In this document: positions 1,256 to 36,258 of the stretch, piece after piece
Layout of the letters: the number at the start of each line of letters is the position of its first letter
Position numbering within the stretch: the stretch's first letter is position 1
Origin: Kangiellaceae bacterium
Lineage (GTDB): Bacteria; Pseudomonadota; Gammaproteobacteria; Enterobacterales; Kangiellaceae
Assembly: GCA_965230335.1 (NCBI GenBank)
Contig: CBDDKS010000006.1
Location: 1,569,321-1,633,320 of the forward strand
Reading direction: 5' to 3'
Length of the DNA: 64,000 nt
Program-made: the position numbers and the translations under genes
The notes under the pieces: model-generated
Seen by the model: the letters and a program-made list of their open reading frames with translations, nothing else
What the model was told of the DNA's origin: nothing
Database searches by the model: none

Positions 1256-1266
1256 CAAAATATAAT

Positions 1267-18084: not shown

Positions 18085-20331
18085 ATGAAACTAAGAGCAA
18101 AAACGCTTTTACAGTTTAATTTGGGTTTATTGTTGCTCATCATACAGGCACTGATAGTGGGTTACTTTATTAATATAAGTAAACTGTCATCAGTCAAAGT
18201 TAATAATACGCTTGCTATAAAAGTACTTCTTGAAAAGCAGCATGAGAATTTAAACAATATGGAAATAGAACTGAATGATTTGGAATCGGCAAATAATATT
18301 TCTGAAAAAATAGATATCATTAATGTTTATTGGCAGGAAGCAGATAAAAATCATATTGAATTTATCTCAAAAGATGGATTGTTTGAAACATTTAGTTTTT
18401 CTTCTGAATTTAAAAATGAAAAAGGGGATGATTTTAAAGTATTTAATCCAGAAACTTATAAAGATAAATTTGCCAAATTTAAATCCGAATATGAAAGATT
18501 TCTAAATTTAAAACAATCAAAGGCAGATGAATTAGATATATTAGAACAAGGCTTTATATTACTGGAGGAAATTAGCACAGTGAGTCAAGAAATCAATCTT
18601 GCACAAATTAATATTCAGGAGTCATTGAAATCAGCGTTAGATGAACAAAATAAAAATCTGGATATACCCATAGAAGCTTCTTATATTGTGTGTTTAATTG
18701 CGGGTATTATCATCTCTTTTATGGGATGGTTATTTTCCAAAAAATTAACTCGTCCCATAGAATCATTGGATAATAGTCTAAAAGAAATTGCAGATGGAAA
18801 AATAGATGGTAAACAATTAGATGTTTTATCAAAGGATGAGCTAGGCAGCTTGGCAACATCCTATAATAAAATGCAGAAAAATCTTCAGGAAAGAATTGAA
18901 AGTGATAAAAAGATTGCCAGAGAAAATCAAAGAGTTTTAGAGGCGCTTAATAAAGCAACAGCTAATATTGTATTAACTGATAATGAAGGTCAAATTATTT
19001 ATTATAATCTGGCGGCAAAGTTACTTTTTGAAAATACAAAAGTATCTTTCGAGTTAAATAATAGAGATTTTGATCCTGATTCATTAAAAGGTATGTCGAT
19101 TAATTCACTATGTGAGCAGTTTGTAGTTCAAAATATTTCATGTGAAACTATTAGAGAATTTTCAATTGGTGAGCATTCTTTTAAAGTCATTGCTAATCCT
19201 GTGTTGAATGCATCAGAAAAATTAATTGGCGTTATTTTTGAATGGCAGGATAGAACAGTAGAAATCTGTATAGAGCAGGAAATACAATCTATAGTAAAAG
19301 CTGCATCATCTGGCAATTTAACGCAACGTATTCATTTAGATGATAAAGAAGGGTTTTTCCATATACTGGGAGAGAATGTGAATATGCTGGTTAATGTTAT
19401 GGAAAAAATAACCAAAGATACCATTAATATTTTTGAATCATTAGCATCAGGAAATCTTAAAGAAAAAATAAAGGATGATTATAAAGGTGCTTTTGAAAGA
19501 ATAAAAAATAATGCTAATGCAACAATTTTTAAACTAACTGGTGTGGTTAATAAAATTCAACAGACATCAGATGTTGTGCATATTGGTGCACGTGACCTTG
19601 CCGTCAGCAATACCAATTTAAGTGACCGCACTGAACAACAGGCTGCCAGTCTTGAAAGAACAGCCAGTCGCATGGATGAGATTTCATCTATGGTACAGAA
19701 AACATCACAGCAATCCAGCCATGCTAATAACCTGGTTCTAGCTGCTCAGGAATATGCAACAGATGGTAATGAAGTGATTACAAGTACTATTGATGCCATG
19801 GAACAAATTAATTTATCCAGTGGAAAAATTTCAGAAATTATTGGCGTGATTGATGATATTGCATTTCAGACTAACTTATTAGCACTCAATGCTTCAGTTG
19901 AAGCGGCAAGAGCTGGAGAAGAAGGTAAAGGCTTTGCTGTGGTTGCAGGCGAGGTTCGTAACTTATCGGGTAGAAGTGCAAACGCTGCTAAAGAAATTAA
20001 GTTACTCATAGAAGACAGTATAGAAAAAGTAAAAGTGGGTTCTGATTTTGTTAATCAATCCAATAATGTATTAAATGAAATTATAGGAAGTATAGAAAAT
20101 ATAACAGAAATCGTTCGTGATATTTCTTCTTATGCACAGGAACAATCCATAGGTATTATCGAAATTCATGATGCTATTGAAAAGCTGGAATCATTAACTC
20201 AGCAAAATGCAGCTATGGTTGAAGAGGCTGCTGCAGCAAGTCATGAGATGGGAGAGCAGGCACAAGTACTAAATCAACTAGTGGATTTTTTCACGATAAA
20301 TAGTAAAAATAAAAAAATAGTCAATATGTAA
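18085..20331 (+). CDS. Methyl-accepting chemotaxis protein with two TM segments, a HAMP domain, two PAS-like modules and an MCP signalling domain.
   Basis: TM at about aa 10-30 and about aa 195-215. HAMP (LDNSLKEIADGKIDGK...LGSLATSYNKMQ). Highly conserved MCP signalling segment IDDIAFQTNLLALNASVEAARAGEEGKGFAVVAGEVRNL. Confidence 0.85.
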   Translation: MKLRAKTLLQFNLGLLLLIIQALIVGYFINISKLSSVKVNNTLAIKVLLEKQHENLNNMEIELNDLESANNISEKIDIINVYWQEADKNHIEFISKDGLFETFSFSSEFKNEKGDDFKVFNPETYKDKFAKFKSEYERFLNLKQSKADELDILEQGFILLEEISTVSQEINLAQINIQESLKSALDEQNKNLDIPIEASYIVCLIAGIIISFMGWLFSKKLTRPIESLDNSLKEIADGKIDGKQLDVLSKDELGSLATSYNKMQKNLQERIESDKKIARENQRVLEALNKATANIVLTDNEGQIIYYNLAAKLLFENTKVSFELNNRDFDPDSLKGMSINSLCEQFVVQNISCETIREFSIGEHSFKVIANPVLNASEKLIGVIFEWQDRTVEICIEQEIQSIVKAASSGNLTQRIHLDDKEGFFHILGENVNMLVNVMEKITKDTINIFESLASGNLKEKIKDDYKGAFERIKNNANATIFKLTGVVNKIQQTSDVVHIGARDLAVSNTNLSDRTEQQAASLERTASRMDEISSMVQKTSQQSSHANNLVLAAQEYATDGNEVITSTIDAMEQINLSSGKISEIIGVIDDIAFQTNLLALNASVEAARAGEEGKGFAVVAGEVRNLSGRSANAAKEIKLLIEDSIEKVKVGSDFVNQSNNVLNEIIGSIENITEIVRDISSYAQEQSIGIIEIHDAIEKLESLTQQNAAMVEEAAAASHEMGEQAQVLNQLVDFFTINSKNKKIVNM

Positions 20332-20481
20332 TTTTTACCATTTAAATTTTCAATTAACCTCATACAAATAATTTCATATAAATAAAGGTTGTTTCAATTT
20401 CATTTGATTGTTAATATCAGATGGAGTTGAGTAATTGCTTTTTTGTGCAGCTTTATTAAGAATTTTAGGAGATACTAAAAT

Positions 20482-20763
20482 ATGAATGAGACTGAAATGT
20501 ATGCAGCTCCAAAATCCGAGCTAGAAAATAATGAGTTGAATACTAAGAAGGCAAATTGGATTATTGTTGATTTGTCTTTTTGGTTAGCACACCTTGGATT
20601 TATATTTGGTATGATCATGATGGCTCCATCATCTGATAATGATAGTGCCATGTCTGTAATATCATTAATATTACTGATAACAGGAATGCTTTCAATGGTT
20701 GTATATTTTTTCGCAATTGGTATTTTTGGTGGGATTAAAAATATAATTATTAAAGTCGCTTGA
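20482..20763 (+). CDS. Small membrane protein (93 aa, 2 TM).
   Basis: ORF with an SD-like GGAG 8 nt upstream. Hydrophobic. Confidence 0.35.
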   Translation: MNETEMYAAPKSELENNELNTKKANWIIVDLSFWLAHLGFIFGMIMMAPSSDNDSAMSVISLILLITGMLSMVVYFFAIGIFGGIKNIIIKVA

Positions 20764-20804
20764 ATGCTTTATTTTATCTATTGGAATGATCTCATTCCTA
20801 ACTG

Positions 20805-21419
20805 CTAATCAATGGTTATTTTGTTGGATATAAATCGGCTTTTAAGGAAACGTCCATGAGATTCCAAACTGTCCATATCATTTTTATGAATATCTTCCAC
20901 AATATTTTTCATTTCCTGATCGAGGAGATTCAATTGTTCTATCAGCGTTTCTTTTGGAGTTTGATTATTTTTTCCATTATGAAACCTGGCATAGGCTCGT
21001 GGTAATTTTAAATAGCTTTCTAATGTTTCAGGCAGGTAACTGAGAGCGGTTTCTCTAATAGTGTAAGCTGCTTTATTGGTTTGATCCATTTCCAATAGTT
21101 TAGGTAAGACAATCTGTATGGAGTTGATGATATTTTCGACTTTGATAAGAATATCTTTTGCAACTTTGCTTTTTAATGTTTTTAATAAATCGTCCAGTGC
21201 TTTTCGGATATTATGAATATCGGCTTCTCGATTTAATACAAACTCATAGTTTTCAGGTTTAGGAAATATTAAAAAAACAGCCAGGTATAAACCAGGAACA
21301 ATAAAATACCAGTGTTTATCGATAATGCCTAAAAAGTAACAAAGCAGGCCTAGCAGACCAAATAGAGAAGCTACAATATTGGGCATTCCATAAAGATAAT
21401 ACAGAATGCGCTTTTTCAC
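20805..21419 (-). CDS. XpaC-like (5-bromo-4-chloroindolyl phosphate hydrolysis protein family) membrane protein. Last gene of the TelA operon.
   Basis: The 204-aa protein has two N-terminal TM helices and a helical soluble domain, the same size and topology as B. subtilis XpaC. It has a GTG start 2 nt after the stop of the upstream gene, with GAGGG upstream. Confidence 0.5.
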   Translation of the reverse strand: MKKRILYYLYGMPNIVASLFGLLGLLCYFLGIIDKHWYFIVPGLYLAVFLIFPKPENYEFVLNREADIHNIRKALDDLLKTLKSKVAKDILIKVENIINSIQIVLPKLLEMDQTNKAAYTIRETALSYLPETLESYLKLPRAYARFHNGKNNQTPKETLIEQLNLLDQEMKNIVEDIHKNDMDSLESHGRFLKSRFISNKITID

Positions 21420-21421
21420 GT

Positions 21422-22978
21422 TTATTGATACCCTCTGATTTTTTTAAATACAAAATGCAGGGATTGCTTTTTTGCATCAAATATCCGACCACCGGTTATG
21501 TTACTTAATTCATTCATTTCTACATCATTGCTGTCGCCAAATAAGATAGGAAAGGTTTTAATTCTTTGGGCTTCTTGAGGTAATCGTCGAAATATTTTTT
21601 TAAAGGTTTGAAAATTTATACCAGATTGATTTGAACCATCGGTTAATAATAATATGCTATAAAATTTTTCAGGATTTTCATTTTGTGCTTTAATGGCCAT
21701 TTTATAAGCTGTATCTAATGCGCTATAGATTGCAGTGCCTCCAAGTGCCTGTAAATGTTGAACATGGTTTCTTAATGACTGCATATCTGTGCTGTTATAA
21801 TCTGTATTTTGAATTTTAAAATCAACGGGATTAAATGCTTTGCTATTGAAAGGTATGATAGTAATAGTTTCCCGTGCACGAAAGCGTGAGAATTGCCCCG
21901 TTATTGATTGATCGGCACCAGTCAGGTTAGAAATAGACTGCTTAAGTAAATTAATATTTGACCCTTGCATAGAGCCACTGATATCGAGAACAAAAAAGGT
22001 ATGTGAAGGTTTCCTATGTTTGTCCAAATAAGCAAATAATAGTTTATCAATTTCAGATAAAGTTCTAGGGAAAGGTAATTCTACAAGTAATTGTTTTGGA
22101 AAGCGGGCATCAGGTTTTACTTTAGGATTAACAGGACGTCTTTGTGTGGTTTTCATAATCTGGTTTTGTAATTTTTCGGACATTAAACATTCAACCAGTT
22201 TATGAAAAGTTTTCTTTTTATTATTGTTTAACAGCATGAGTGGATAATCAGCCGTAATAATACCTTCTTGTGGATAAACTAGAATGAGTTTTTCTTTTAA
22301 ATTACCGCTTGCATTCAATTGCATTAATACAGATTCGTAGTTAATAATAGCATCCAGACGATCTTGTTCTCTGACATAAGATTCTGCCAACCAGCCTGAG
22401 CTACCCGCTGTTAGATCCTGCCCTTTAAAAAATTGTTTCAATGTTTTTTCATCTATAGAAGACAGATCAAAAGTGTCTTGGCTATTTGAAAATGCAGCAG
22501 CAACACCGACCAAGGCAGTAAAACCTGAGTTACTTGAAGCAGGATTTGTCATAGCATAACGCAATTGTCCTGTTGCTGCTTTATTGGCAATATCACGCCA
22601 GGTTAGATTTTTATTAGTATCCCAACCAAATTTTCTCGCTTGGCTTTCTTTAATTCCCATAACAACGGGAGACAGCATAATTTTATCTTGAGAAACAATT
22701 CGATTTCGTGTTTGTTCAAGTAATGTTAAATATTTTGCATGTGAAAACCAAGCTATATCATAAAGCTCTCCTCCAGCCAGTTTTTCTGCACCATCCAATG
22801 TTCCAATATATTGAAACTCTAATGTTGCATTAGCGCACTTCTGAATATCGTTTAATAAGGGCTTGATATCTTTTAATTCAGAGCCTGCCAATATAGAAAA
22901 ACTTTCTTTAGGCGTATCACTACAACTAAAGAGAAGACAAGAGAAGAAAAATACAGTAACAATATGACGTAAGACCAT
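21422..22978 (-). CDS. Lipoprotein with an N-terminal PBP-like (solute-binding-like) domain fused to a C-terminal vWA domain with an intact MIDAS.
   Basis: Lipobox LFSCS. MIDAS DISGSMQG...T(A)...LLLTDGSNQSG in the C-terminal 200 aa. The N-terminal approx. 280 aa are periplasmic-binding-protein-like. Confidence 0.75.
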   Translation of the reverse strand: MVLRHIVTVFFFSCLLFSCSDTPKESFSILAGSELKDIKPLLNDIQKCANATLEFQYIGTLDGAEKLAGGELYDIAWFSHAKYLTLLEQTRNRIVSQDKIMLSPVVMGIKESQARKFGWDTNKNLTWRDIANKAATGQLRYAMTNPASSNSGFTALVGVAAAFSNSQDTFDLSSIDEKTLKQFFKGQDLTAGSSGWLAESYVREQDRLDAIINYESVLMQLNASGNLKEKLILVYPQEGIITADYPLMLLNNNKKKTFHKLVECLMSEKLQNQIMKTTQRRPVNPKVKPDARFPKQLLVELPFPRTLSEIDKLLFAYLDKHRKPSHTFFVLDISGSMQGSNINLLKQSISNLTGADQSITGQFSRFRARETITIIPFNSKAFNPVDFKIQNTDYNSTDMQSLRNHVQHLQALGGTAIYSALDTAYKMAIKAQNENPEKFYSILLLTDGSNQSGINFQTFKKIFRRLPQEAQRIKTFPILFGDSNDVEMNELSNITGGRIFDAKKQSLHFVFKKIRGYQ

Positions 22979-23010
22979 AATAAGACTCTGTTGATTAAAA
23001 TGTTAACTAT

Positions 23011-24225
23011 TTATAAAGACAGAACATTTTCTGATGATAATGTTTTCATTTCTTCATTACGAACACGATCAACATAGGATTGTGCTTTTGTAATTTCACT
23101 GCTGAGTGTATCTACAGTTTGTTGCATATTATTTAATGCTTTCACTTTAAAGTCGGCCATCATATCCATGGTATCGTATATGTTTTGAAAAGCAGTTTTT
23201 AATTTATTTAATTCAACCGTTGAACTTGCAGCATCCTGCTGAATTTGTCCTGACTGTTGTTTCAGCATTTCAGAGGTGCCCTGGATTAAGTTGCTGGTTG
23301 TTTTATTTAAAGCTGTAATCTGGTCTAAAACAAGCTTCTGATTATTCAATGCGCTGGCCACCATAACGGCTGTTCTTAAAGCAGATACAGTGGTGGTGGT
23401 TGCCCGGTCAACACCTTTAATGAGTTCCAAATTATTTTTTCGTATCATATCCAATGCTAAGTATCCCTGAATACTAATTGCCTCTTGTGTTAGGAGGTCG
23501 GTAATTTTTTGTCGCACATAAAAGAGAAGTTCTTCTTTTATAATTCGGGATTTTTCTTTATCAGTAGTTTCTATTTCAGCAATTTTTTCTGTAAGTACTT
23601 TGTCGATTTCCTTGCCAATATAAGTATATTTTTTTAATTTTTGCATGATTTCCCATAAATTGGCTTTTTCCTGTTCAATCGTTGCATTATCTTTTTTTAA
23701 TTCATCCTGACTTCTATATAGTGTTTCTATGATGGCATTAATATGGGTTTGGGAAGATTGATATTTTGCAAAGTAATCACGAATTTTATTGCCAAAAGGA
23801 ATAAAACCAAATAATTTCTTAGGTGTGAATAAATCACCTTGTGATGATGGATCAAGATCTTCTACTTTTTGACGCAGTTCAACTAAAGCCTGACCAACCG
23901 TTGTGTTTTCTCCCGCAACTTGAGCGGTTAATACTTTTGTTGGACGATCAAGCATTCTATTGGAGGAACCCGCAGCATCATAAATCTCTTTTGTGCCCAT
24001 GGCATGTACAGCATTCAGCTTTTCTTTAAAATCGTCACTGTGTATATCTAAAGAAATAATGGCATTCACAAATTCATGTACTCGTTCATTGAGACTTTGT
24101 TTTTCGTCGTCATTGAGTGATACCATTTCATAGGCTTTTTCAGGTGCAACTGCTTTAACAGCTTCAGGTGGTGATAAGACAAGAGTGGTTTCGGATGAAT
24201 CAATAGTGCTATTTAATTGTTCCAT
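23011..24225 (-). CDS. telA: TelA-family (toxic anion resistance / KlaB) protein.
   Basis: 404-aa all-alpha protein. The segments KIRDYFAKYQSSQTHINAI and QGYLALDMIRKNNLELIKGVDRATTTT parallel conserved TelA/YaaN regions. GAGGA lies 7 nt upstream of the ATG. Confidence 0.7.
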   Translation of the reverse strand: MEQLNSTIDSSETTLVLSPPEAVKAVAPEKAYEMVSLNDDEKQSLNERVHEFVNAIISLDIHSDDFKEKLNAVHAMGTKEIYDAAGSSNRMLDRPTKVLTAQVAGENTTVGQALVELRQKVEDLDPSSQGDLFTPKKLFGFIPFGNKIRDYFAKYQSSQTHINAIIETLYRSQDELKKDNATIEQEKANLWEIMQKLKKYTYIGKEIDKVLTEKIAEIETTDKEKSRIIKEELLFYVRQKITDLLTQEAISIQGYLALDMIRKNNLELIKGVDRATTTTVSALRTAVMVASALNNQKLVLDQITALNKTTSNLIQGTSEMLKQQSGQIQQDAASSTVELNKLKTAFQNIYDTMDMMADFKVKALNNMQQTVDTLSSEITKAQSYVDRVRNEEMKTLSSENVLSL

Positions 24226-24269
24226 ATGGTATTCCTCATGTTATAGATTGAAGTATATTGTTTTCATAG

Positions 24270-25337
24270 TTAATATTGTTGTTCAATACGTTGGATCATA
24301 GCTTCAACGAATTCGTAAGCTGGAGGTTCAATAACATTAACCAGATTCTTACCAATTTTGATTTGATGTTTTATAATAAATTCATTGAAATATCCCGTAT
24401 TGCTGTTTCTGAAACCATGTTCAATAGCAAGCTTTTGTAACTCGATATCAGTTTCCAATATCTCTCCAAAACGATGACCATCTTCAGATAAACTGACTAG
24501 CACATGTTTGGTAAATAAAGAAGGTTCTGGGTACAGTAAAACCATATCAGAATAAATGCTGCCATCTTTTAAAGAGGCTTTATAAATAAATTGTGATTCA
24601 TAAATTAAAACCAAAGGTGCTTTCCCCATACCCATAACAAGATAATCATCAAAAGGTACAGCAGAGGAATACTCAATAAACCCCTGGCGTTTAAATAATT
24701 CTGAAACACTATGAATAATAGGGTCAATTTGTTCGTAGTTTTGTATAACGTTATTGTTATTTAACACGTAGCTGGCTAATGATAAATACATTGCAGCAGA
24801 ATTTGATTTACGAATATCTGTTGAATTAATTAATAATGCTTTGTTTACAGAGAAAGAGCTATTATTTTTTAAATCTTTCCAACGCATTTTTTTATTGAAA
24901 GCATCCAAGTAAGCTTTCATGTTTAACGTATAATAATGGCCTTTATTGGTTACCATTCCATTGTCTTGTAAAATGTTAACGATAGGCTGCCAGGAAGCGA
25001 TGGCAATAGGTGTAAAGAAAGGGTTATAGGATTTTGTATTTGAATTTTCTCTACGAATTTTTTCAGCAGCAGGTAATCCTGCTGGGAACGCATAATCGTA
25101 TTTTGTTAAATCAAAGCTGGTTGCAATTTGTCGAGAACCTGCTTTTTGATATTTTACTATAAATCCAAGCTTTTTAAGTCGTTTTTGAACTCTGGGATCA
25201 TCAAAAAAAGGGCGTTTTTCTGAACCAATGAGTCCTATGATTTCGACGGCTTTTTGTGATTGCAAAGAATCATATATTGCATAGCCAACGCCAGAGAGTA
25301 GCAAGATACTTAAAATAGGTCCCAAAATTTTTTTCAT
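24270..25337 (-). CDS. Secreted PBP-like protein, paralogous to the N-terminal domain of the vWA lipoprotein.
   Basis: Signal/anchor MKKILGPILSILLLSGVGYA. Over its first 60 aa the segment AVEIIGLIGSEKRPFFDDPRVQ...YQKAGS...TKYDYAFPAG shows loose pattern similarity (I-G/A-GSE, Y..G/AGS, YD) with SFSILAGSELKDIKPLLNDIQ...YIGTLDGAEKLAGGELYDIAW of the neighbouring gene. GAGGA RBS. Confidence 0.45.
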   Translation of the reverse strand: MKKILGPILSILLLSGVGYAIYDSLQSQKAVEIIGLIGSEKRPFFDDPRVQKRLKKLGFIVKYQKAGSRQIATSFDLTKYDYAFPAGLPAAEKIRRENSNTKSYNPFFTPIAIASWQPIVNILQDNGMVTNKGHYYTLNMKAYLDAFNKKMRWKDLKNNSSFSVNKALLINSTDIRKSNSAAMYLSLASYVLNNNNVIQNYEQIDPIIHSVSELFKRQGFIEYSSAVPFDDYLVMGMGKAPLVLIYESQFIYKASLKDGSIYSDMVLLYPEPSLFTKHVLVSLSEDGHRFGEILETDIELQKLAIEHGFRNSNTGYFNEFIIKHQIKIGKNLVNVIEPPAYEFVEAMIQRIEQQY

Positions 25338-25545: not shown

Positions 25546-28500
25546 TTATGACTTCTTGTCTTTTGCAGATGATTGTTTCTCACTGGAATGAGTGATGCTG
25601 GGTTCAGATAATACCTGTTTAAGCTGTCCCACTTGATGTTCAATCTCACCCATTTTTTCATGTGTTTTTAAATCAATGTTCAATTTACCATCCATAATTT
25701 TAATTAAAGGTAATAAACTGTTTTGCATCGTATCGGTTAATGCTTCCAGTAAGGTTTTAATACCTGGAACCGGTTGATTAATGACTTCAACTTTTGGCTG
25801 TGGAAAGTCCATTGCTGTGACGAGTTTGTCAAAATGTTTAGATAGTTCTGAGAGCAGTTTTTTTGTCAACGCATCATCCAAAGTTTGACCCTGTGTTGAG
25901 TTTGTCTGTGATGATGACAGGATTTCTTTGAAATGTGCGATATTATTAACCAGTTCATGAAGCTGACGTACTATTTTTTCACCGGCTTCCATATTGCTGC
26001 CACCAATGGCCTTATTTTTTATAAATTCTTTTTTAATAGCTTCCCAGCGTTGCTTTTCATCGTTACTTAATATATTTCTTAATTCATTCAGTTTAAGTAG
26101 ATTTTCTTCGGTACTTTTTGTTAATAATTGTGCTTCGCCCTGATAATGATCACTGATCAATTGTTCAAGCTCATCATCTGTCATACTTGCAGAAATTTTT
26201 TCCGCAATTTTATTCATATTACGATAGGAGCCTTGCAATTTAAAAGGTGGTTCAGTTCGGTAGCGATCGTCCTGTGCACTGGAAGCAATGTAACATTGAT
26301 TCACTTTTGAAATAATAGATTGAATACTAAACAATTTATCTAAAATGTTGGTGATTTCTTTAATTTCTGAAAGGCTATATTGATGCTCTAATTCATTGGT
26401 TGATGTTTGCTGATTTTTTGTCATATCAATGAATCGATAAATGTCATCCATTGATCGTGATACCAGGGGAGCCAATATAGCATTTGAAGTCAGTGCATTT
26501 TCGATATAACTTAAATGGAAGATGTCATCCTGACCACCGAGTATATCGCCCAGGTTATAAATATCTGCACGATTAGCTAGCATATCAGGTATTTTAAAAA
26601 CATCACCTGATTCTGTATAAGGATTGCCTGCCATAACCACACAAAACTTTTTGCCTCGCATATCATATGTTTTCGCTTTGTTCTTCCAGACACCTTCGAT
26701 TCGTCTTGTACCATCACATAAAGATATGAATTGCTGTAAAAATTCAGGATTGGTATGTTGAATATCATCCAGATAGAGCATAACGTTATTGCCCATTTCA
26801 AAAGCCAGATTGAGTTTTTCAAGCTCTTGTCTTGCACTGCTGTTATCCGCCTGCTCTGGATCAACCGAAGTCGTATGATGTCCAATGGCTGGGCAGTTAA
26901 TACGCATAAAAATAAGTCCCAAGCGACTGGCAATGTACTCCATTAATGTTGTCTTACCATAGCCTGGTGGTGAAATCATAATAAGCAACCCCATCAAGTC
27001 CGTTCGTTTTTTGTCACCAACAGTTCCTAACTGTTTGGCAAGATTATCACCGATGATAGGTAAGTAAGCCTGATTAATGAGTTGATTTCTGACAAAAGAA
27101 GTTAAAGGCCGAGGAATAAAATCTTTAATACGCAAAGCATTTCTTTGTTCTTGAATCAGATGCTGTCTCATTTTTTGGAATTTATGATAGCCAGGCTCTA
27201 TAAAATGCTTATGGTAAGCAAGGCGTTCCAGATAATCATCCAATTCTATGGTCATGGTTTGTTGTTGAATACGAGGATGTTGGCCTAATAAATGCTCAAT
27301 ATTCAGTTGAATATCCAATTGTTGCACATCAAAAGCAAGATGTTGTTGTGTGTTCAATAGGGCAATCGCTTCAGGAAGGAAGCTTTTGTAGGATGTTTTA
27401 TTATGACTGATAATAAACGCATTCAACCATGCGGATGTCAATAGCCATTGTTTGCCAATATCACCATTGAGTGTTTTTAAAGCTTTCTGATAATCTTTCC
27501 ATAAATCCTGAGTTTCCAGATTGAGTTTAAAATCATGTACGATGGAGTCGGCATATTTTGAACTGACAAAATGACCCTGTTCTTTGCCAAGTTCGACCAC
27601 CAGATATTCAGAGGCCAGTTGAGATGTGGTTTCTTTAACTGATATATGGTGTTCTGTTGTAAATTCTTCCAGATGCGATGCGATTTCTTGATTAAGCTCC
27701 ATAATGGCAGTATTCGAAGAAAATATATTGGAAATTTTCTGTGCATTTCTTGCTCGAATAGGCCAGTTCTTACACATGGGTTTTTCTTTATGATTTGCCC
27801 AAAATACAACCGCAACTGCACGAGCTAAAGCAGGATATTTTAATGCACCAGAAGTATTATAAGCATCAATCAGTTTTTCCAATAAGAGTGCAGCATCATG
27901 ATCGTGAATACCTTTTTCATAGCCTTCCTGATATCGACTTACAATGTATTGGGAGATGAGTTGTTTCAGAGCCGATTTATCGGATACTGCATCAGTCAGT
28001 AATGACCACGTTAAATTCTCTTTATTTTCTAATGCCGATTGAATAATAGAGTAAGATAAATATTCTCCACGATAAATCTCTTCTGTTTCAGAATATAAAG
28101 ACAGATGCCAAAAGGGTTTAAGTTCATCAATTTCTGGGTGATTGATTTTTTCAAAAAAATCAGTTCCTGTTAAATGTACATAGAGTGCATCTTCACGATG
28201 GATGATAGTGACATCCAATTCTTGTGAATTGACAGAAAATTTATGTCGGGGGCCCAGTTTAATCACTTGCCCACCTTCTTCATAAATATCTGCTTTATCC
28301 CTCAGCATTTTTAAAGAAAGTTCTTTACTGGCTTTTAATTTTCCTAATAGCGTTTCTGCTTTTACGGTATCATCATAAGTTCTGAGTTTGTCACAAAGTT
28401 CATTAATTCTTAAAACCAAGGTATCTGAAGAGAAAAAAGTATTCAATTCATCCTGTGTATTCAGTTTTTTTGTTCTTCTTTGAATACTTTCTAAAACACG

Positions 28501-30858
28501 TGTGCCTGTATTAAATAAAGATTGAATTTTCTTTTGCTGTTCATCTAATAGAAATTGTTTATGAGATTCAAATGATTCAAAGATATCATCTCTTTTGGAT
28601 AATATTTCAGAAAGGTATTGTTCAGATTCTCCAAACTGGCTTTCTAGTTCGTCTAGCTGTATCAGTAATTTCGAGAGTTCTTCATCACATCGTTCCGGTG
28701 TTTTGCACAGATTCATGGCACTTTGAATACTTTGTTCTAACAAACGGAATCTTGCTGAAAACTGAGCACTGTTTTCCTTGGTGCGAAAGCTTTCTTGTTG
28801 ATTAATAAATACGGCTTTTTGTTGGTTAAGTCTGGCATAAAACTCGGAGATAGCATCTACAATGTGTGTCTGTATTGTTGCGTCTGTGACGGGTAAGCTG
28901 GATACGAGTTCTGATAATAAATCCAATCCTTCAGCCAATTGCTCCAGTTTGTTTATAAAGGGTTCGAGTTCTACTAATTTCTTGCAATGACCTGAGTCTT
29001 TAATAATATGTTCCAGTTCATCATGATAATGGACAAAGGCATTATCTTGTGAAAGAAATGCTAATGTTTTTTCATTGAGCTCTTTTTCTTTTTCTAATAA
29101 GGTTTGTTCCAGATCATGCACTTTGTTTAAATTAATATAACGGTATTCCTTAATGGTTAATAAATGTCCACGTTGTTCTTTGATTTTTTGTAGATGTTCC
29201 GCAAATAGTTGAGGAGAGTCCCAGGCGTCTGGTTGCAATTTATCTAATAATTCTTCTTGATCAGTTTCCGCTTCAAGGAGTTGTTTTTCTGAGTTTTCAC
29301 GAATATGTTTTACTTTTTCGTACTCATCGATAATAGACTCACAAGTCTGTGATACATCTTTTAAATCAGAAGCAATCGTTTCCAGTTCTTTGGATTTTAA
29401 CCAATAGTAATTATCAAAAATTTTTGAGCTGCGTTTTAAAACATCCTGAAAGTGTGTTGAAGAAACATCTTTTTTATCAACTAAACGAACAATAGCAAAT
29501 AGTTCAGAAATGCCACGCACCAATTCAGCATTACCAATTTTTCCATAAAAACTATCACTCTCTGATTGCTGACTGGCATACTCTTCTGAATAAAAAGGGG
29601 TTTGCCATATTTGTATAGGATGAATACGAGTGGCTTCTTCTTCGGCATAGAAAACAACTAATTTGCCATCTGGATAAATACCATAGCCATGACCAAAGAT
29701 AGGATTTTTCATACTTTGGTTAATTAAATTGTATGCAAATAAAGCAACAACATTGTGTTTAGGTTGGTAAAAGATAAAAAGTACATCTTCTCCATTGGGT
29801 GATTTAATCATTCTTTTAAATTTTAATCCATCATAATCATGATTAAATGTTTTGAACTCACTGGTTGTCAAAAAATAACCTTCAGGAAATATCAAACCAT
29901 GATCTTCAGGAAGTTGTATACAGGAATCACCAATAGAATCCAAACGTGTGACGGATTGATCTTTAGTATTAAAAATAAGGTAACGCCAATGTTCCTCTCT
30001 ATAAGGTTTTACCTTGATTAAAATTAATGCACCAACCTGACTATAGAAAAATTCGGCATCATCTAATGATTGTGTGGCATCATCGACTTCTTCTGTATAA
30101 ATACCTTCGCCATTATCTGTATTATCTTCTACCTTGATGGTTAAATGGTGATCTAATGTGTCTATAAAAACAGTATCGAGAATATTAATATGTGGATGAC
30201 GACCTTCAACGATATTTTTATGGTCACATTCTATCCATTCGAAATCATGTGTGGGAGGTAGTTGAATATCACGTTCACCTCGGTTATCGATATAATCAAT
30301 ACTACCATCCTGATGAATATTCCAACGAAATACCCGTATATCCGTTAACTTATCACCTATTTGAAATGCTGCCAGTAAGAGATTATCTTTTCGAACCAAC
30401 TGGGTTAAATAGGCATTTTTGTAATAAGAGTAGAGTTCTTTAAATTCTACTAAAAAAGTATCATTAACCAGAAAACTATCTTTTAAGGGTACATTAATCA
30501 GTTCAAACTTATTATCTACCGATTTAATATGATACAAAGAAAATACATCATCAATTTTGGTTTCTTTTCTTAAACCTAAGAAAACGTTATAGCCAAAAAG
30601 AATTTGGTTACCGATTTGTACCAGATCTCTTGCTTCACAATTATTATCTGTCCTTAAATTAATTCGAGACAAGATAGTCATATCCATATGTTGAAATTCG
30701 TTCAGTCTTTCCTGATTTAATTGTTCAATATGGTTATTTAATGTTTTGCCTTGTTGTTGCAATCTTTGAAAGATAACTTCGTAAGCACCACTTTCCGTTA
30801 CAGTATCATTGATGCTGGTATTCAGAGTACTGCTTTCTTGCTCTTGATTATCTGTCAC
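25546..30858 (-). CDS. Giant (1770 aa) protein with a MoxR/AAA_5-like AAA+ ATPase module near the C-terminus (about aa 1285-1440) and a 1280-aa N-terminal extension rich in coiled-coil.
   Basis: Walker A MISPPGYGKTTL. Walker B VMLYLDDIQH. Sensor-1 VVMAGNPYTESGD. Arg-containing LANRADIY. GTG start at 30858 with GGTGA 5 nt upstream and an in-frame stop 10 codons further upstream. The central approx. 500-1250 aa are strongly helical and coiled-coil. Confidence 0.8.
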   Translation of the reverse strand: MTDNQEQESSTLNTSINDTVTESGAYEVIFQRLQQQGKTLNNHIEQLNQERLNEFQHMDMTILSRINLRTDNNCEARDLVQIGNQILFGYNVFLGLRKETKIDDVFSLYHIKSVDNKFELINVPLKDSFLVNDTFLVEFKELYSYYKNAYLTQLVRKDNLLLAAFQIGDKLTDIRVFRWNIHQDGSIDYIDNRGERDIQLPPTHDFEWIECDHKNIVEGRHPHINILDTVFIDTLDHHLTIKVEDNTDNGEGIYTEEVDDATQSLDDAEFFYSQVGALILIKVKPYREEHWRYLIFNTKDQSVTRLDSIGDSCIQLPEDHGLIFPEGYFLTTSEFKTFNHDYDGLKFKRMIKSPNGEDVLFIFYQPKHNVVALFAYNLINQSMKNPIFGHGYGIYPDGKLVVFYAEEEATRIHPIQIWQTPFYSEEYASQQSESDSFYGKIGNAELVRGISELFAIVRLVDKKDVSSTHFQDVLKRSSKIFDNYYWLKSKELETIASDLKDVSQTCESIIDEYEKVKHIRENSEKQLLEAETDQEELLDKLQPDAWDSPQLFAEHLQKIKEQRGHLLTIKEYRYINLNKVHDLEQTLLEKEKELNEKTLAFLSQDNAFVHYHDELEHIIKDSGHCKKLVELEPFINKLEQLAEGLDLLSELVSSLPVTDATIQTHIVDAISEFYARLNQQKAVFINQQESFRTKENSAQFSARFRLLEQSIQSAMNLCKTPERCDEELSKLLIQLDELESQFGESEQYLSEILSKRDDIFESFESHKQFLLDEQQKKIQSLFNTGTRVLESIQRRTKKLNTQDELNTFFSSDTLVLRINELCDKLRTYDDTVKAETLLGKLKASKELSLKMLRDKADIYEEGGQVIKLGPRHKFSVNSQELDVTIIHREDALYVHLTGTDFFEKINHPEIDELKPFWHLSLYSETEEIYRGEYLSYSIIQSALENKENLTWSLLTDAVSDKSALKQLISQYIVSRYQEGYEKGIHDHDAALLLEKLIDAYNTSGALKYPALARAVAVVFWANHKEKPMCKNWPIRARNAQKISNIFSSNTAIMELNQEIASHLEEFTTEHHISVKETTSQLASEYLVVELGKEQGHFVSSKYADSIVHDFKLNLETQDLWKDYQKALKTLNGDIGKQWLLTSAWLNAFIISHNKTSYKSFLPEAIALLNTQQHLAFDVQQLDIQLNIEHLLGQHPRIQQQTMTIELDDYLERLAYHKHFIEPGYHKFQKMRQHLIQEQRNALRIKDFIPRPLTSFVRNQLINQAYLPIIGDNLAKQLGTVGDKKRTDLMGLLIMISPPGYGKTTLMEYIASRLGLIFMRINCPAIGHHTTSVDPEQADNSSARQELEKLNLAFEMGNNVMLYLDDIQHTNPEFLQQFISLCDGTRRIEGVWKNKAKTYDMRGKKFCVVMAGNPYTESGDVFKIPDMLANRADIYNLGDILGGQDDIFHLSYIENALTSNAILAPLVSRSMDDIYRFIDMTKNQQTSTNELEHQYSLSEIKEITNILDKLFSIQSIISKVNQCYIASSAQDDRYRTEPPFKLQGSYRNMNKIAEKISASMTDDELEQLISDHYQGEAQLLTKSTEENLLKLNELRNILSNDEKQRWEAIKKEFIKNKAIGGSNMEAGEKIVRQLHELVNNIAHFKEILSSSQTNSTQGQTLDDALTKKLLSELSKHFDKLVTAMDFPQPKVEVINQPVPGIKTLLEALTDTMQNSLLPLIKIMDGKLNIDLKTHEKMGEIEHQVGQLKQVLSEPSITHSSEKQSSAKDKKS

Positions 30859-30985: not shown

Positions 30986-33016
30986 TTATTGATGATTTTC
31001 TGTATTGGTTTGATGGTCGATTTTTTCTGAGCCATTTCCGCCTAATATTTTTGAAAGAAGGGCAGAAATAATAGGGCTTTTCTCAAGAAAACCATCAACA
31101 GCATTTCCCATTCCTAATCCTTTTGCTAATTTATCAAAATAATCATTTTGACCACCAACAATATCAATATTAGCATTTTCCAATGCAGAAGCAATGACAT
31201 TTGCCTGCTCTCCTGCAACAATTTTGCTTGCATCGATATTGGCCAAGGCTTCTTTTAAATGAGCTTCCAATTTAATTTTAAACTCTTCAAATTCTTTAGC
31301 TTCGGGACTCATATTGTTCATGGCAGCAAATTTTTCTACCAACCCTTGTGCCTCTGATTTGGCTTTTTCTAAAATAATTTGTGCTTCAGCCAATCCTTTT
31401 TCTTTATCTGCTTTGGCTTCTGCAATACCTAACTGTTCTGTACCAACGGCTTCTGCTTGTAGTTTTTCTTCCAGGACTTTTGCTTCAGCCAGTCCTTCTT
31501 TTTCAAGTGCAGTTGCTTTTGATTCCTGTACTCTGGCTTCTGATAATCCGACTTCTTCTTTACCTTTTGCTGTCGCATTTAGTTTTTCCAGCATAATGGT
31601 CGCTTCTACTAAACCTTCTTTTTCATCTGCAAGTGCCTTGGCTTCTTTAACTTTTGCTTCGGCTAATCCTGCTGCGGCAAGTTGTGCCTGTTTACCTTCT
31701 GCCAGTTTTTTATCAGATTCTGACTTTTTCGCAGCGGCTTCCAATTCTGCCTGTGCCATCATATTAATTTCTTTAGCTCTATGTAATGCAGATTTTTCTT
31801 CCGCTTCGGCTCGCTTAATCTGATGAATCATAACTTCTTCAGCTTGTGCTTCGGCATCTAATATTTTAACTTGTTTTGAACGATCAGCTTCCGATACTTC
31901 TTTGACTTCTTTAATACGTTCTTCTTCTTCGGCAACCTTGCGTTCTACAGCGATACGTTCACTAATAGTGTTGGCAATAATTTTACGTTCTTCTTCCAAA
32001 TCTTTTTCTTTATTAATTTCTTCAATTTCAACATCTCTTTGACGACTGACAGCTTCTAACTGTTGAGCTTTTAATACTTTTTCTTTTTCTATAACAACGG
32101 CTCTTTCTTTATTTTGTCTGGCAACTTCCACTTGCCTTAAACGATTTTCTTCACGAACTTCAACCTGTTCTGCAACAGCAATACGTGCTTCTTCAGCTTT
32201 TAAATGTTCTTCGGATCGGACTTTTTCAATTTCCGCTTTCTCTCTTGCTTTAACGGTTTCAATTTCTCGTTCTTGCTTGGCTTCAGCATCAGCTTTTTGA
32301 CGTTCTAGAGCAAGTAAAGATTCTTTGGTTTCAACATTCTTTTTAGTGATCGCCAGCTCTTCATCTTTTTCCAGACGATTGGTTTGAATATTTTGTTCTG
32401 CAGTCACTTCAGTAATTCTTCGGATACCTTCAGAATCTAAAATATTATTAGGGTCCAGTTGTGACTTCGGTGTTTGCTCCAAGTAATCAATAGCCACGTC
32501 TTCTAAAACATAACCGTTTAGATCATCGCCAATAACATCAACAATTTTTTCTCTAAAAAGAATTCTATTTTCAAATAAATCCAAAAACACCATATTCTTA
32601 CCTACGGTCTTTAATGCTTCAGAAAACTTTGCATTAAATAATTCATTCACCGCGTCTTTATCAGAGGCTCTATCAACCCCAATGGCTTTGGCCACTTTTA
32701 AGACATCGTCCGGTGTTTCATTCACTCTAAGATAGAAAGCAACGGTAATATCGGCTCTTAAATTATCTTTACAAATCAAACCATCTTTACCTCGTCTATC
32801 AACTTCTAGTGTAATTAACGAAATTTTCATAATTTCCATTTTATGGATAACCGGAATAACAAAGGCACCTGTAAAGCTGACCTTGGGTTTATTAGAGGTA
32901 TTATTAACGATTAATGCATAGCCTTGAGATACTTTTTTATAACATCGAATAATGTATATAATAACAGCGAAAGTAATGAATGTTATAAAACCGATGATTA
33001 AATAAAGTGGTAACAT
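30986..33016 (-). CDS. Flotillin-like SPFH/Band-7 protein (YqiK-like) with an extended repetitive coiled-coil C-terminus.
   Basis: N-terminal TM segment. SPFH domain (VSFTGAFVIPVIHKMEIMKISLITLEV...). Long E/A/K-rich coiled coil with tandem approx. 22-aa repeats such as GLAEAKVKEAKALADEKEGL, GLSEARVQESKATALEKEGL and GLAEAKVLEEKLQAEAVGTEQLG. Confidence 0.85.
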   Translation of the reverse strand: MLPLYLIIGFITFITFAVIIYIIRCYKKVSQGYALIVNNTSNKPKVSFTGAFVIPVIHKMEIMKISLITLEVDRRGKDGLICKDNLRADITVAFYLRVNETPDDVLKVAKAIGVDRASDKDAVNELFNAKFSEALKTVGKNMVFLDLFENRILFREKIVDVIGDDLNGYVLEDVAIDYLEQTPKSQLDPNNILDSEGIRRITEVTAEQNIQTNRLEKDEELAITKKNVETKESLLALERQKADAEAKQEREIETVKAREKAEIEKVRSEEHLKAEEARIAVAEQVEVREENRLRQVEVARQNKERAVVIEKEKVLKAQQLEAVSRQRDVEIEEINKEKDLEEERKIIANTISERIAVERKVAEEEERIKEVKEVSEADRSKQVKILDAEAQAEEVMIHQIKRAEAEEKSALHRAKEINMMAQAELEAAAKKSESDKKLAEGKQAQLAAAGLAEAKVKEAKALADEKEGLVEATIMLEKLNATAKGKEEVGLSEARVQESKATALEKEGLAEAKVLEEKLQAEAVGTEQLGIAEAKADKEKGLAEAQIILEKAKSEAQGLVEKFAAMNNMSPEAKEFEEFKIKLEAHLKEALANIDASKIVAGEQANVIASALENANIDIVGGQNDYFDKLAKGLGMGNAVDGFLEKSPIISALLSKILGGNGSEKIDHQTNTENHQ
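31380..31720. repeat. Intragenic imperfect tandem DNA repeats (approx. 66-bp units) that encode the flotillin coiled-coil repeats.
   Basis: Recurring units of the form GCTTCTGC..AATCC(T/G)ACTT / TTCAGCCA(A/G)TCCTTCTTTTTC on the + strand. This also explains the spurious antisense ORFs at 31314-31823. Confidence 0.6.
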
Positions 33017-33047: not shown

Positions 33048-33689
33048 TTAATCTAAAATGTTTTTTTCTTGAATGAGATAAATATTAGTTGATGCATCAT
33101 AATCATGGATGACAACGATATCGCCTTTACTAAAAGATTGATTGGTGTGCTTTGTTCTTACTTTGACTATCAGTGATGCACCATCTATGATACATTCGGC
33201 TTCACCAGTTTCTGAGTTAACTTTCAGCGATCGTATTTTACATTCTCGACCAATAAAAGATTTTTGACCTGAATCAGCATACAGTTTTCTAAAGACTTTT
33301 CTTAAGGGTTTAATAATTTGTGCTGTAATCGGTAATGAAAATGCAAAGCTACCAATTAAGACACCAGTACCTAAAACCCACTCTTTAATAAAACCTGAAC
33401 TCATCCAGTTTAATAGATAATGCATCAAGCTGAATGATATAATCCAGGAAACAAAAATAATGATTGTTAGTACAATCATTAACGGAACACCTGTTAATCC
33501 ACAAGAGACAAGAAAGGTTGCAGCACCTGAAATATCAGCACCCTCTGCTTCAATATCAATATCTATATCAAACAAGTCAAAATCGAATAGTCCCAGAGTA
33601 ACTAAAAACCAATAACCGATTAGTATCAATATCATGATCGTGTATACGACTGTTGGGTAATGACTTATTGTTTGTAAAAATGATTCCAT
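33048..33689 (-). CDS. YqiJ/NfeD-like membrane protein, the usual partner of SPFH/flotillin proteins.
   Basis: Three or four TM helices and a C-terminal soluble beta (OB-like) domain (KSFIGRECKIRSLKVNSETGEAECIIDGASLIVKV...GDIVVIHDYD). It is immediately upstream of the flotillin gene, as in E. coli yqiJK. Confidence 0.6.
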   Translation of the reverse strand: MESFLQTISHYPTVVYTIMILILIGYWFLVTLGLFDFDLFDIDIDIEAEGADISGAATFLVSCGLTGVPLMIVLTIIIFVSWIISFSLMHYLLNWMSSGFIKEWVLGTGVLIGSFAFSLPITAQIIKPLRKVFRKLYADSGQKSFIGRECKIRSLKVNSETGEAECIIDGASLIVKVRTKHTNQSFSKGDIVVIHDYDASTNIYLIQEKNILD

Positions 33690-33698
33690 TGAATCCTC

Positions 33699-34277
33699 TT
33701 AATGGTTATAGTGAATTTTTGAAGTGTTTTTCTTTTGATTGACGTACCAGGCACAAAAAACACCACTTAAAAAACCGAATATATGTGCTTCAAAACTAGT
33801 ATTATCCTGGAAATTGACTAATGTAAAAAACAGACCACCGTAAATAAATAAAGAGATTAAGGCAATTAATATACCTCGTATGGAACGATGAAACCAGCCA
33901 AAAGCAATAAGAAATCCCCAGTATCCCATGACTAAACCAGAAGCACCTATGTGTTCTGTGTCTGGGCGTCCAAATAACCATACCAAAATACCACCTATAA
34001 AAACAATGAAGGAAGTGGCAACAGGTAAATGCTTTGTTGAATAAACCAAGATACCCAAAATAAGTAGGGGTAAGCTGTTGGATATTAAATGTTGCATGTT
34101 GCCGTGTAGGAATGGCATAGTAATAATTCCAGTTAAACCATCGAGTTTACGTGGAATTAGTCCAGTAAGTTCATAGCCAAATACAATTTTTGAAATCTGA
34201 ATTAGCCATAAACAAACAATAAAAGCAATAAACCATTTTAGTTGAATACTATTTTTTTTCATCCTAGTTATTTCCAT
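33699..34277 (-). CDS. Rhomboid-family intramembrane serine protease.
   Basis: Six TM core with the catalytic GASGLVMGYWG (GxSG) and the downstream AHIFGFLSG histidine motif. Confidence 0.75.
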   Translation of the reverse strand: MEITRMKKNSIQLKWFIAFIVCLWLIQISKIVFGYELTGLIPRKLDGLTGIITMPFLHGNMQHLISNSLPLLILGILVYSTKHLPVATSFIVFIGGILVWLFGRPDTEHIGASGLVMGYWGFLIAFGWFHRSIRGILIALISLFIYGGLFFTLVNFQDNTSFEAHIFGFLSGVFCAWYVNQKKNTSKIHYNH

Positions 34278-34950: not shown

Positions 34951-36258
34951 ATGGTAGATAACACTAAAACATATCAAGTCAACTCTTGTTTTCTAAAATA
35001 TAGAATGCAAGATAAACAATTAACGAATGATGCTTTGATTGCTAAATTTTTTGAAAAAAGTGAAAAGAAAATTGATCCTAGAACAATAACACGATGGAGA
35101 AATGAAAATCCAAAAATTTCAGAAAAAAATCTATATTTATTAACAGAAATACTAGATTGCAATCTGGAAGATTTGATTTATTTACATAATGATCAAATTT
35201 TTTTTGATATTGATAGAGAACGTTATGAGTTAGCTAAACAGTTTTCAGATACTTCTGCATTTTTAACATTATACGCATGGGGTGATTTAAAGAGTGGTAT
35301 TAATCTTATTACTTCCTTTTTAGTTCTTCCCGTACCTTTAAGTTGGGCTGAAAAAGTAAAGCTTTATTCTGCAGCCGCTTTTTTGCATTGCATGAATAAT
35401 GAGATAATTAAATCAAAAAAATATTGCTATATGATTTTGAAATGTGAAGATGATGAAAAATTTGTTGAAGCAAAAAAAATAGCTTATTTTATTTTGGGGC
35501 TTATTGAAATGTGTGATGCATTTTATGAAAAAGCAATGGATTATTATAATTTATCTTTAAACTATAATTCTTGTGTTAAAACAAAAAAAAATGAGTTTTC
35601 AGAGAAAGAAACAAGTAATTTTTATTATATTGATTTATTAAATAATATATTTATTGGTATCGTTATGAACCACCAAGGGTATTTGGAATCCAGCAAACAA
35701 CATTTTGAAAAATTTGTTACTGTGCTTAAAAAAAGTAATACGGTGTTAGAAACAACGATTTCATCTATGGGTCTATTCGGTTGGATCAATTTGTTAATTG
35801 AATTCGATGAAATTAAACAAGCAAAAAAAGAATTGATTGTTGCAAAAAGAATTGCAAGCAAACAGTATAATAATATATGTTTGTTAAAGTTTAATATGTT
35901 AGATGCATGGATAAAAATTAAAGAAAAGAAATATCAGGAAGCTCAAAAAGTGTGTGATGAAGTTATGAATATTTATCCTTTAAATTATCCTTCTTACAAA
36001 GCTTTTGAAATTGCAGCAATGGTATACAGAAAAAATAATGATATAGAAAAATTAAATTTTATACTTAACTTATCACTTGATAAATTTGATAACAAGCCAT
36101 GCATGTCTGGTATATATAAAGAGTTTGGTTTTTATTATATGCAACATAAAAATAATGAAAAAGCAGGATATTATTTTTCAAAAGCGCTTGATGCATATAA
36201 ACGGTCAGATGCTATGCCTAGATTTGATTTTTTAAAAACATGTATAGATTTGTATTAG
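34951..36258 (+). CDS. Transcriptional regulator with an N-terminal HTH (XRE-like) and a C-terminal TPR-like helical repeat domain.
   Basis: HTH region LTNDALIAKFFEKSEKKIDPRTITRWRNENPKISEKNLYLLTEIL. The C-terminal 300 aa are Tyr/Asn/Lys-rich helical repeats. It is divergently transcribed from the membrane block. Confidence 0.6.
   Translation: MVDNTKTYQVNSCFLKYRMQDKQLTNDALIAKFFEKSEKKIDPRTITRWRNENPKISEKNLYLLTEILDCNLEDLIYLHNDQIFFDIDRERYELAKQFSDTSAFLTLYAWGDLKSGINLITSFLVLPVPLSWAEKVKLYSAAAFLHCMNNEIIKSKKYCYMILKCEDDEKFVEAKKIAYFILGLIEMCDAFYEKAMDYYNLSLNYNSCVKTKKNEFSEKETSNFYYIDLLNNIFIGIVMNHQGYLESSKQHFEKFVTVLKKSNTVLETTISSMGLFGWINLLIEFDEIKQAKKELIVAKRIASKQYNNICLLKFNMLDAWIKIKEKKYQEAQKVCDEVMNIYPLNYPSYKAFEIAAMVYRKNNDIEKLNFILNLSLDKFDNKPCMSGIYKEFGFYYMQHKNNEKAGYYFSKALDAYKRSDAMPRFDFLKTCIDLY

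Follow-up and report, generated by a model that had tools for sequence, protein, structure and literature searches.

What does a bacterial protein of 1770 amino acids do with a single ATPase module in its C-terminal part? The question is raised by a gene in a stretch of 64,000 nucleotides from a Kangiellaceae bacterium (contig CBDDKS010000006.1, positions 1,569,321 to 1,633,320), the whole of which is called the window here. A first-pass annotation had described the gene product as a MoxR-like AAA+ (ATPases associated with various cellular activities) core preceded by an N-terminal extension of 1280 residues. In our study, the neighbour genes were found to carry most of the functional information on this giant ATPase. 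Its gene was the third of an operon, preceded by genes encoding a YqiJ-like protein and a flotillin, and we lean towards the explanation that the giant is a soluble, cytoplasmic protein that uses ATP to remodel the membrane assembly of flotillin and YqiJ. The three genes are as follows.

25546..30858, minus strand: giant AAA+ ATPase gene (DUF3686, DUF7902 and AAA+), 1770 amino acids, GTG start at 30858, stop included
30986..33016, minus strand: YqiK-type flotillin (SPFH), 676 amino acids, with a helical region rich in Ala and Glu and a single transmembrane segment at the N-terminus (hhalign against E. coli YqiK)
33048..33689, minus strand: YqiJ-like protein (short NfeD-type), 213 amino acids, with three transmembrane segments (hhalign against E. 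coli YqiJ)

On the minus strand of the window, a rhomboid gene was followed after 9 bp by the YqiJ-like gene, after a further 31 bp by the flotillin gene, after 127 bp by the giant gene and after 208 bp by a separate module. When one genome per species was scanned, the giant ATPase was found to be encoded at 591 loci or more, and the 80 best-scoring of them were taken as the neighbourhood sample. These 80 loci were chosen by two peptide motifs of the ATPase region of the giant only, so that the choice was blind to the neighbour genes, and they came from at least six phyla, spanning the Gamma-, Beta- and Zetaproteobacteria, Myxococcota, Actinomycetota, Clostridia and Acidobacteriota. The flotillin gene was present immediately upstream of the giant gene in 78 of the 80 loci and the YqiJ-like gene was present upstream of the flotillin gene in 73, with constant order and strand. 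In both loci without the flotillin gene, and in most of those without the YqiJ-like gene, the available sequence or the contig ended close upstream of the giant gene. In view of this near-constant linkage to flotillin, the most likely place of work of the giant is the membrane, and a part in DNA repair is not indicated.

In Pfam, neither Band_7 nor Flotillin nor any other family was matched by the flotillin partner or by four homologues, and the partner was therefore identified by aligning its family profile to E. coli YqiK with hhalign (probability 99.9, E 1.4e-32). The source annotations of the homologues read 'flotillin family protein' or 'YqiK', and no match was found between the partner profile and PDB sequences. 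The YqiK-like subfamily (7,941 matches at E <= 1e-5) appears to lie outside the current Pfam coverage. The flotillin partners were about 100–170 residues longer than E. coli YqiK (553 amino acids), and about 230 C-terminal profile columns were left unaligned to it. The profile of the YqiJ-like protein matched E. coli YqiJ with an hhalign probability of 90.8 (E 1.2e-6) and the Pfam family YqiJ_N with an E value of 0.027. By predicted topology the giant contained no transmembrane segment, whereas the flotillin contained one and the YqiJ-like protein three, and this pattern fits a cytoplasmic enzyme acting on a membrane-anchored scaffold. Opposite the Ala/Glu-rich part of the flotillin gene, an antisense open reading frame (ORF) of 169 amino acids, rich in Ala and Ser, was present (31314-31823, plus strand). 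It was rejected as a gene, being a mere shadow of the repeats in the coding strand. Similar antisense ORFs clustered in 38 other loci.

The AAA+ module of the giant was found to contain the following features.

26539..27018, minus strand: AAA+ alpha/beta domain, residues 1281–1440 (AlphaFold2 model, conservation)
26947-26970, minus strand: Walker A PPGYGKTT, residues 1297–1304 (translation)
26764-26778, minus strand: Walker B LYLDD, residues 1361–1365 (translation)
26656-26709, minus strand: pre-sensor-1 beta-hairpin (AlphaFold2 model)
26620-26634, minus strand: sensor-1 MAGNP, residues 1409–1413 (translation)
26563-26580, minus strand: candidate arginine finger R1430 (invariance, position)
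26179..26538, minus strand: AAA+ helical lid, residues 1441–1560 (AlphaFold2 model)
26215-26238, minus strand: invariant LQGSYRNM with candidate sensor-2 R1546 (invariance, position)

Translation placed all the motifs listed in the first-pass annotation, namely Walker A, Walker B, sensor-1 and a His/Asp patch near the N-terminus, where they had been reported. The AAA+ region was the most conserved part of the giant, with a mean column identity of 77% in 31 sequences from several phyla. The K1302/T1303, D1364/D1365 and N1412 residues were invariant, as were R1430 at the arginine-finger position and R1546 at the sensor-2 position. With these catalytic-motif residues intact, the giant looks like an active ATPase. 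The Walker B motif was hhhhDD instead of the usual hhhhDE in all members examined, D1364 and D1365 being invariant in 36 and 31 diverse sequences.

How far the module belongs with MoxR proteins depends on the comparison that is made. The Pfam models AAA_5 (PF07728; 31.0 bits, cut-off 22) and generic AAA (PF00004; 28.9 bits) passed, whereas AAA_3 (PF07726), the model for MoxR proper, failed with 14.4 bits against a cut-off of 27. Against PDB sequences, the AAA+ profile matched classical AAA proteins and RuvB at the Walker A region only, and the whole giant gave no significant match with phmmer. A search of the PHROGs returned generic AAA matches only. By structure comparison, the AAA+ fold was closest to the MoxR remodellers CbbQ and NorQ, which gave the best target TM-scores in Foldseek (0.49–0.59), and it was also close to midasin and dynein. 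As in MoxR proteins (CbbQ, NorQ, RavA), a beta-hairpin before sensor-1 was predicted, at residues 1386–1399 ahead of the sensor-1 strand in the AlphaFold2 secondary structure. The motifs after Walker B follow the MoxR/AAA_5 layout, and the segment NP-x-x-E-x-G...IPD-x-L-x-N-R after sensor-1 parallels the MoxR signature. However, the segment between beta-2 and alpha-2 (residues 1322–1339, 18 residues) was modelled as a loop and a short helix, and the hairpin of the helix-2 insert was not predicted. The DD Walker B is a further difference. A MoxR protein is typically a stand-alone protein of about 300–350 amino acids paired with a vWA/MIDAS protein, whereas the giant is 1770 amino acids long and no vWA partner was found among the conserved neighbours of the 80 loci, where VWA occurred in 1 of 147 genes flanking the giant downstream. 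'MoxR-like' is thus a fair description of the AAA+ fold, as proposed in the first-pass annotation, but the fold does not establish the giant as a MoxR family member, because the protein is about six times too long, has no predicted helix-2 hairpin and has no vWA partner.

Outside the AAA+ module, the giant was divided into the following parts.

30685..30858, minus strand: disordered tip (residues 1–23) and long N-terminal helix, residues 1–58, the helix packing on the post-propeller helices (AlphaFold2 model)
29593..30684, minus strand: beta-propeller of about seven blades, residues 59–422, core of Pfam DUF3686 (AlphaFold2 model)
30175-30252, minus strand: conserved His/Asp-rich loop THDFEWIECDHKNIVEGRHPHINILD, residues 203–228 (translation)
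29389..29592, minus strand: helices closing the propeller module and leading to the stalk, residues 423–490 (AlphaFold2 model)
28279..29388, minus strand: putative helical stalk, residues 491–860, including DUF7902 at 28795-29043 (composition, near-absence of indels)
27019..28278, minus strand: middle region, residues 861–1280, with a beta domain (865–905), an all-helical globular domain, three strands and long pre-AAA helices (AlphaFold2 model)
27892-27924, minus strand: conserved GYEKGIHDHDA, residues 979–989 (invariant columns)
25549..26178, minus strand: C-terminal helices, residues 1561–1770, conserved to about residue 1650, after which length and sequence vary

The AlphaFold2 model of residues 1–490 had a predicted local distance difference test score (pLDDT) of 84 and contained a helix at residues 6–55, about seven four-stranded blades at 61–419 and two helices at 425–483. 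On this model, the N-terminal module is a divergent beta-propeller clamped by helices, without a close solved relative. The earlier description of the first 450 or so residues as beta-rich with His/Asp patches agreed with the model, in which about the first 420 residues were beta-rich and the His/Asp-rich patch formed a conserved loop between propeller blades. The following stalk was helix-favouring by composition (52% E/K/Q/L/A/R and 3% P+G) and contained essentially no indels across 36 diverse sequences. The distance from the propeller motif QxWxTP to a motif at about residues 869–876 was 459–462 amino acids in 61 of 69 loci of different phyla, which gives some support to the earlier suggestion of a molecular ruler or scaffold. 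Long helical and coiled-coil stretches had been proposed for residues 480–1250. The composition of residues 491–860 agrees with this proposal, whereas residues 861–1280 were modelled as a small beta domain followed by a globular helical domain and thus differ from a simple coiled coil.

The AlphaFold2 model of residues 860–1770 (pLDDT 87.5) contained the beta domain, the helical domain, a canonical AAA+ alpha/beta domain, the lid and the C-terminal helices. The profile of the middle domain (residues 860–1285) found no relative among PDB sequences, the best E value being 0.19. The GYEKGIHDHDA segment was located in a loop of the helical middle domain, and its G983, H985, D988 and A989 residues were invariant across phyla in the diverse set. 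A metal or a partner could bind at this segment.

The giant gene was found to be intact. The ORF listing and the translation confirmed a single frame of 1770 amino acids from 25546 to 30858, and a frame open for 5.3 kb in DNA of about 34% GC is not a chance ORF. The GTG codon was the first possible start after the upstream stop in the ORF listing of the window, in agreement with the earlier remark that no in-frame ATG is available upstream, and a Shine-Dalgarno-like AGGTGA was present 4 nt before it. The earliest in-frame ATG was codon 57. Residues 19–56 were invariant or nearly invariant among the homologues (e.g., V20, A25, Y26, R32 and L33), and the GTG start is well supported because a start at ATG57 would delete these residues. 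A fusion of two genes or a frameshift artefact, which the first-pass annotation had named as a possible objection, was excluded by the abundance of homologues of 1590–2036 amino acids with the same architecture.

In the window protein, Pfam DUF3686 (PF12458) was matched end to end, from residue 40 to residue 485 and over profile positions 2–448 of 448 (E 3.3e-186, with 619.6 bits where the cut-off is 25), and DUF7902 (PF25472) was matched in the helical region at residues 606–688 (E 3.1e-22). With a single C-terminal AAA+ module and a length within about 1600–2000 amino acids, the window protein has all the features of the DUF3686/DUF7902 giant family, including the operon position after the YqiJ-like and flotillin genes. 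A search of 5.8 billion proteins found more than 4,800 clusters at 90% identity with the same full-length architecture. The best 120 clusters were all 1740–1814 amino acids long and contained the same Pfam set, and their NCBI name was usually 'DNA repair ATPase'. The closest named relatives were found in Pleionea and Aliikangiella of the Kangiellaceae, with 51–57% identity. A full HMMER scan with residues 1–490 found 676 clusters at 50% identity, in which the complete members ranged from 1590 to 2036 amino acids and carried the domain N-terminally. Members were present in Stenotrophomonas maltophilia, Proteus mirabilis, Myxococcus, the megaplasmids of Streptomyces and the plasmid pQBR103 in Pseudomonas fluorescens. 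The window protein is thus a further member of a catalogued, experimentally uncharacterised family of giant AAA+ proteins and is ordinary for this window. The extension is genuine and conserved, but it is neither unassigned, as stated in the first-pass annotation, nor rare, and the operon has already been described (PMC11237479). The N-terminal region did not match a well-characterised family, since DUF3686 and DUF7902 are named but uncharacterised.

In the explanation that we favour, the MoxR-class AAA+ modules of the giant would form a ring, and each subunit would project a helical stalk of fixed length ending in a beta-propeller. The flotillin (SPFH) assembly, fixed in the inner membrane along with YqiJ, would offer its cytoplasmic face as the docking site for the propeller and the stalk. 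The energy of ATP hydrolysis would then go into remodelling (assembling, opening or disassembling) the flotillin scaffold or its clients in an envelope or membrane stress response. The propeller, linked in cis, would take the adaptor role that is played in other MoxR systems by a vWA/MIDAS module acting in trans or on a long linker, as in midasin. Several points weigh against this explanation. The yqiJK genes occur without the giant in E. coli and in many further bacteria, so that flotillin generally needs no giant. The DD Walker B is unusual for AAA+ proteins, and hydrolysis may therefore be slow, regulated or switch-like. The loop PAIGHHTTSVDP at the position of pore loop 1 was free of aromatic residues, and this speaks against a translocase of the classical threading type. 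Moreover, the neighbourhood sample was drawn from the best-scoring loci and relied on crude ORF calling, and no experimental work on any member of the giant family was found in the literature.

The same operon was described computationally in a comparative genomics study (Ravi et al., 2024; PMC11237479) as a PspA-centred CesT/Tir-PspA-flotillin-AAA+ operon, and a role in membrane dynamics was independently proposed there. This placement invites the reading that the giant is a Vps4-like regulator which disassembles or remodels PspA/IM30 (PspA/YjfJ) polymers, with flotillin and YqiJ as a membrane platform only. We consider this unlikely for the family as a whole and plausible for the subset of loci that contain PspA. 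YjfI (DUF2170, CesT/Tir-like) and PspA/IM30 were present directly upstream of the triad in 22–23 of the 80 loci, and also in Aliikangiella and on pQBR103. The role itself is unfilled, as a Vps4-like ATPase for bacterial PspA 'appears absent' according to a 2025 review (PMC7619361), and a B. subtilis SPFH protein is reported to link PspA to the membrane (PMC8581546). However, about 70% of the loci have no adjacent PspA/YjfI, whereas flotillin and YqiJ were nearly constant. The 64-kb window also gave no match to PspA, YjfI or PLD queries with phmmer, and hence its locus is of the 'abbreviated' form without PspA that is mentioned in PMC11237479. The AAA+ module is of the MoxR class, outside the classical Vps4 clade, and no MIT-like domain was detected in the giant by the Pfam scan. 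About as improbable is a static ruler or scaffold, in which the stalk would set a distance or organise the flotillin microdomain and the ATPase would be a nucleotide switch only. The nearly invariant length of the stalk across phyla agrees with such a ruler, as do the DD Walker B of all members and the pore loop without an aromatic residue. Nevertheless, rulers do not usually need a motor of 280 residues, the motor is the most conserved part of the giant, and its arginine-finger and sensor residues are invariant, as expected of a working oligomeric ATPase.

Two further readings were considered. An anti-phage or conflict system acting at the membrane would be in keeping with the coiled-coil-rich giant ATPases that are common in defence systems, and a PLD-like gene was found downstream of the giant in 9 of the 80 loci. 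TelA, which occurs near some of the giant genes, and the Ter genes are reportedly linked to phage and colicin resistance. Against this, PADLOC returned 0 matches for the giant and eight neighbour proteins, the family had 0 matches among 50,697 phage records and turned up in just 13 of 72,556 plasmid records (for the most part megaplasmids or chromids), the flanking genes were ordinary metabolic or regulatory genes without defence islands, and the conserved core contained no effector nuclease or toxin. We regard a defence role as very improbable. Still harder to credit is the role given by the inherited names, 'ATPase involved in DNA repair' for Pfam PF12458 and 'DNA repair ATPase' in RefSeq. 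Apart from these names, a repair function is suggested by weak local matches of Walker A to RuvB (E 0.004–0.7). The NCBIfam match to RuvB was limited to residues 1282–1327, about 45 residues around the P-loop, and reached 16 bits against cut-offs of 282–299. No DNA-binding, nuclease or helicase domain was detected in the Pfam, NCBIfam and PDB-sequence searches, and no DNA-related or repair gene was present among the conserved neighbours of the 80 loci, where all the conserved partners were membrane proteins. The label 'DNA repair ATPase' is therefore without support and probably misleading, and it probably arose because the helical region bears a spurious resemblance to proteins of the SMC or SbcC type.

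The remodelling of the flotillin/YqiJ assembly, which remains our preferred explanation, was compared with known systems. As noted above, the fold links the giant to the MoxR proteins, whereas its adaptor-like module is the N-terminal beta-propeller. Midasin likewise contains a long helical linker between the motor and a protein-binding module, but midasin and dynein have six AAA+ modules in one chain and the giant has one. In HflK/C-FtsH and other pairs of an SPFH cage with an AAA+ protein, there is likewise a genetic coupling between an SPFH scaffold and an inner-membrane AAA+ machine. However, FtsH is a membrane-embedded protease of the classical AAA clade inside a cage, whereas the giant is soluble, of the MoxR class and without a protease domain, and its partners are a YqiK-type flotillin and a short NfeD-like protein. 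In Vps4/ESCRT-III an AAA+ protein is likewise encoded with a membrane-remodelling polymer, and PspA, of the ESCRT-III superfamily, was present in about 28% of the giant loci, but the giant belongs to another AAA+ clade, has no MIT domain and does not have PspA as a constant partner. A bolder proposal, which we put forward tentatively and hold to be rather doubtful, is that in the giant a bacterial SPFH/flotillin cage would have its first dedicated remodeller that consumes energy, and that the giant would perhaps also be the missing counterpart of Vps4 for PspA/ESCRT-III polymers, through a cis-linked propeller on a fixed-length stalk that replaces the vWA adaptor. The YqiJ-flotillin-giant triad was not covered in a published survey of P. 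aeruginosa SPFH proteins.

The variable neighbours of the triad, namely YjfI/PspA, PLD, rhomboid and TelA, are all membrane or envelope-stress genes. The fullest loci of the family contain the YjfI-PspA dyad and PLD, whereas the window locus is without them but has a rhomboid gene upstream and a TelA / SBP-vWA module downstream. These two elements of the window are located as follows.

33699..34277, minus strand: gene for a rhomboid intramembrane protease, ending 9 bp before the YqiJ-like gene (Pfam Rhomboid, E 3e-19)
20805-25337, minus strand: four-gene module 208 bp downstream of the giant gene, encoding a 355-amino-acid protein, TelA, a 518-amino-acid SBP_bac_11 + VWA protein and a 204-amino-acid protein

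A rhomboid gene adjoined the triad in 9–11 of the 80 loci, and also in Pleionea and on pQBR103. The rhomboid gene is thus a variable accessory of the system and, by analogy with the long NfeD proteases, which cleave stomatins, its product could process YqiJ or the anchor of the flotillin. The genes on pQBR103 of P. fluorescens SBW25 were arranged as YjfI, PspA, rhomboid, YjfK/L/M/C-like genes, the YqiJ-like gene, 'SPFH domain-containing protein' and 'DNA repair ATPase'. A second class of PspA operon described in PMC11237479 was present a few kb from the triad in Pleionea sediminis (17047-24018) and on pQBR103 (43-5167). It contained YjfI, PspA, a spermine-synthase-like or glutathionylspermidine-synthase-like gene and DUF350, together with DUF2491 on pQBR103, and its presence near the triad in relatives reinforces the envelope-stress context.

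TelA was present near the giant in 5–6 of the 80 loci. It followed the giant with overlapping stop and start codons in Stenotrophomonas and Lysobacter, and in S. maltophilia the giant gene, a gene of 235 amino acids and TelA were coupled in this way, which suggests a recurrent, non-universal link of TelA to the flotillin-ATPase triad. In the downstream module of the window, TelA was identified by PF05816 (E 3e-88). The 355-amino-acid protein contained an N-terminal hydrophobic segment and showed weak similarity (E 2e-4) to the SBP half of the 518-amino-acid protein, and the 204-amino-acid protein contained two transmembrane segments. The idea that the operon has a conserved fourth gene in that for the 355-amino-acid protein was rejected, since Pleionea has an unrelated gene at the same position. 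The 518-amino-acid SBP_bac_11 + VWA fusion (21422-22978) was lipoprotein-like, with an LLFSC lipobox and one N-terminal hydrophobic segment, and on account of this lipoprotein-type signal it is taken as exported. It was rejected as a MoxR-type partner of the giant because it is an exported lipoprotein that belongs to another module, and because the surroundings of the family show no conservation of vWA. Two flanking genes on the plus strand seem unrelated to the operon: an Aer2-like methyl-accepting chemotaxis gene with multiple HAMP domains (18085-20331), and a gene of 435 amino acids with HTH_26 and TPR (34951-36258), which is divergent from the operon and is possibly a local regulator.

The operon had already been noted computationally (PMC11237479). 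The main interest lies in the function of a large, conserved machine tied to flotillin, together with the misleading repair name that it has been given. The family occurs in genetically tractable organisms. The giant, a widespread protein of about 1800 residues that is linked to YqiJ/YqiK and often accompanied by PspA, is an obvious candidate for an energy-dependent step in the assembly, opening or recycling of bacterial flotillin/SPFH scaffolds. If the giant does remodel the flotillin/YqiJ assembly, the flotillin microdomains of these bacteria would be actively regulated in an ATP-dependent manner.

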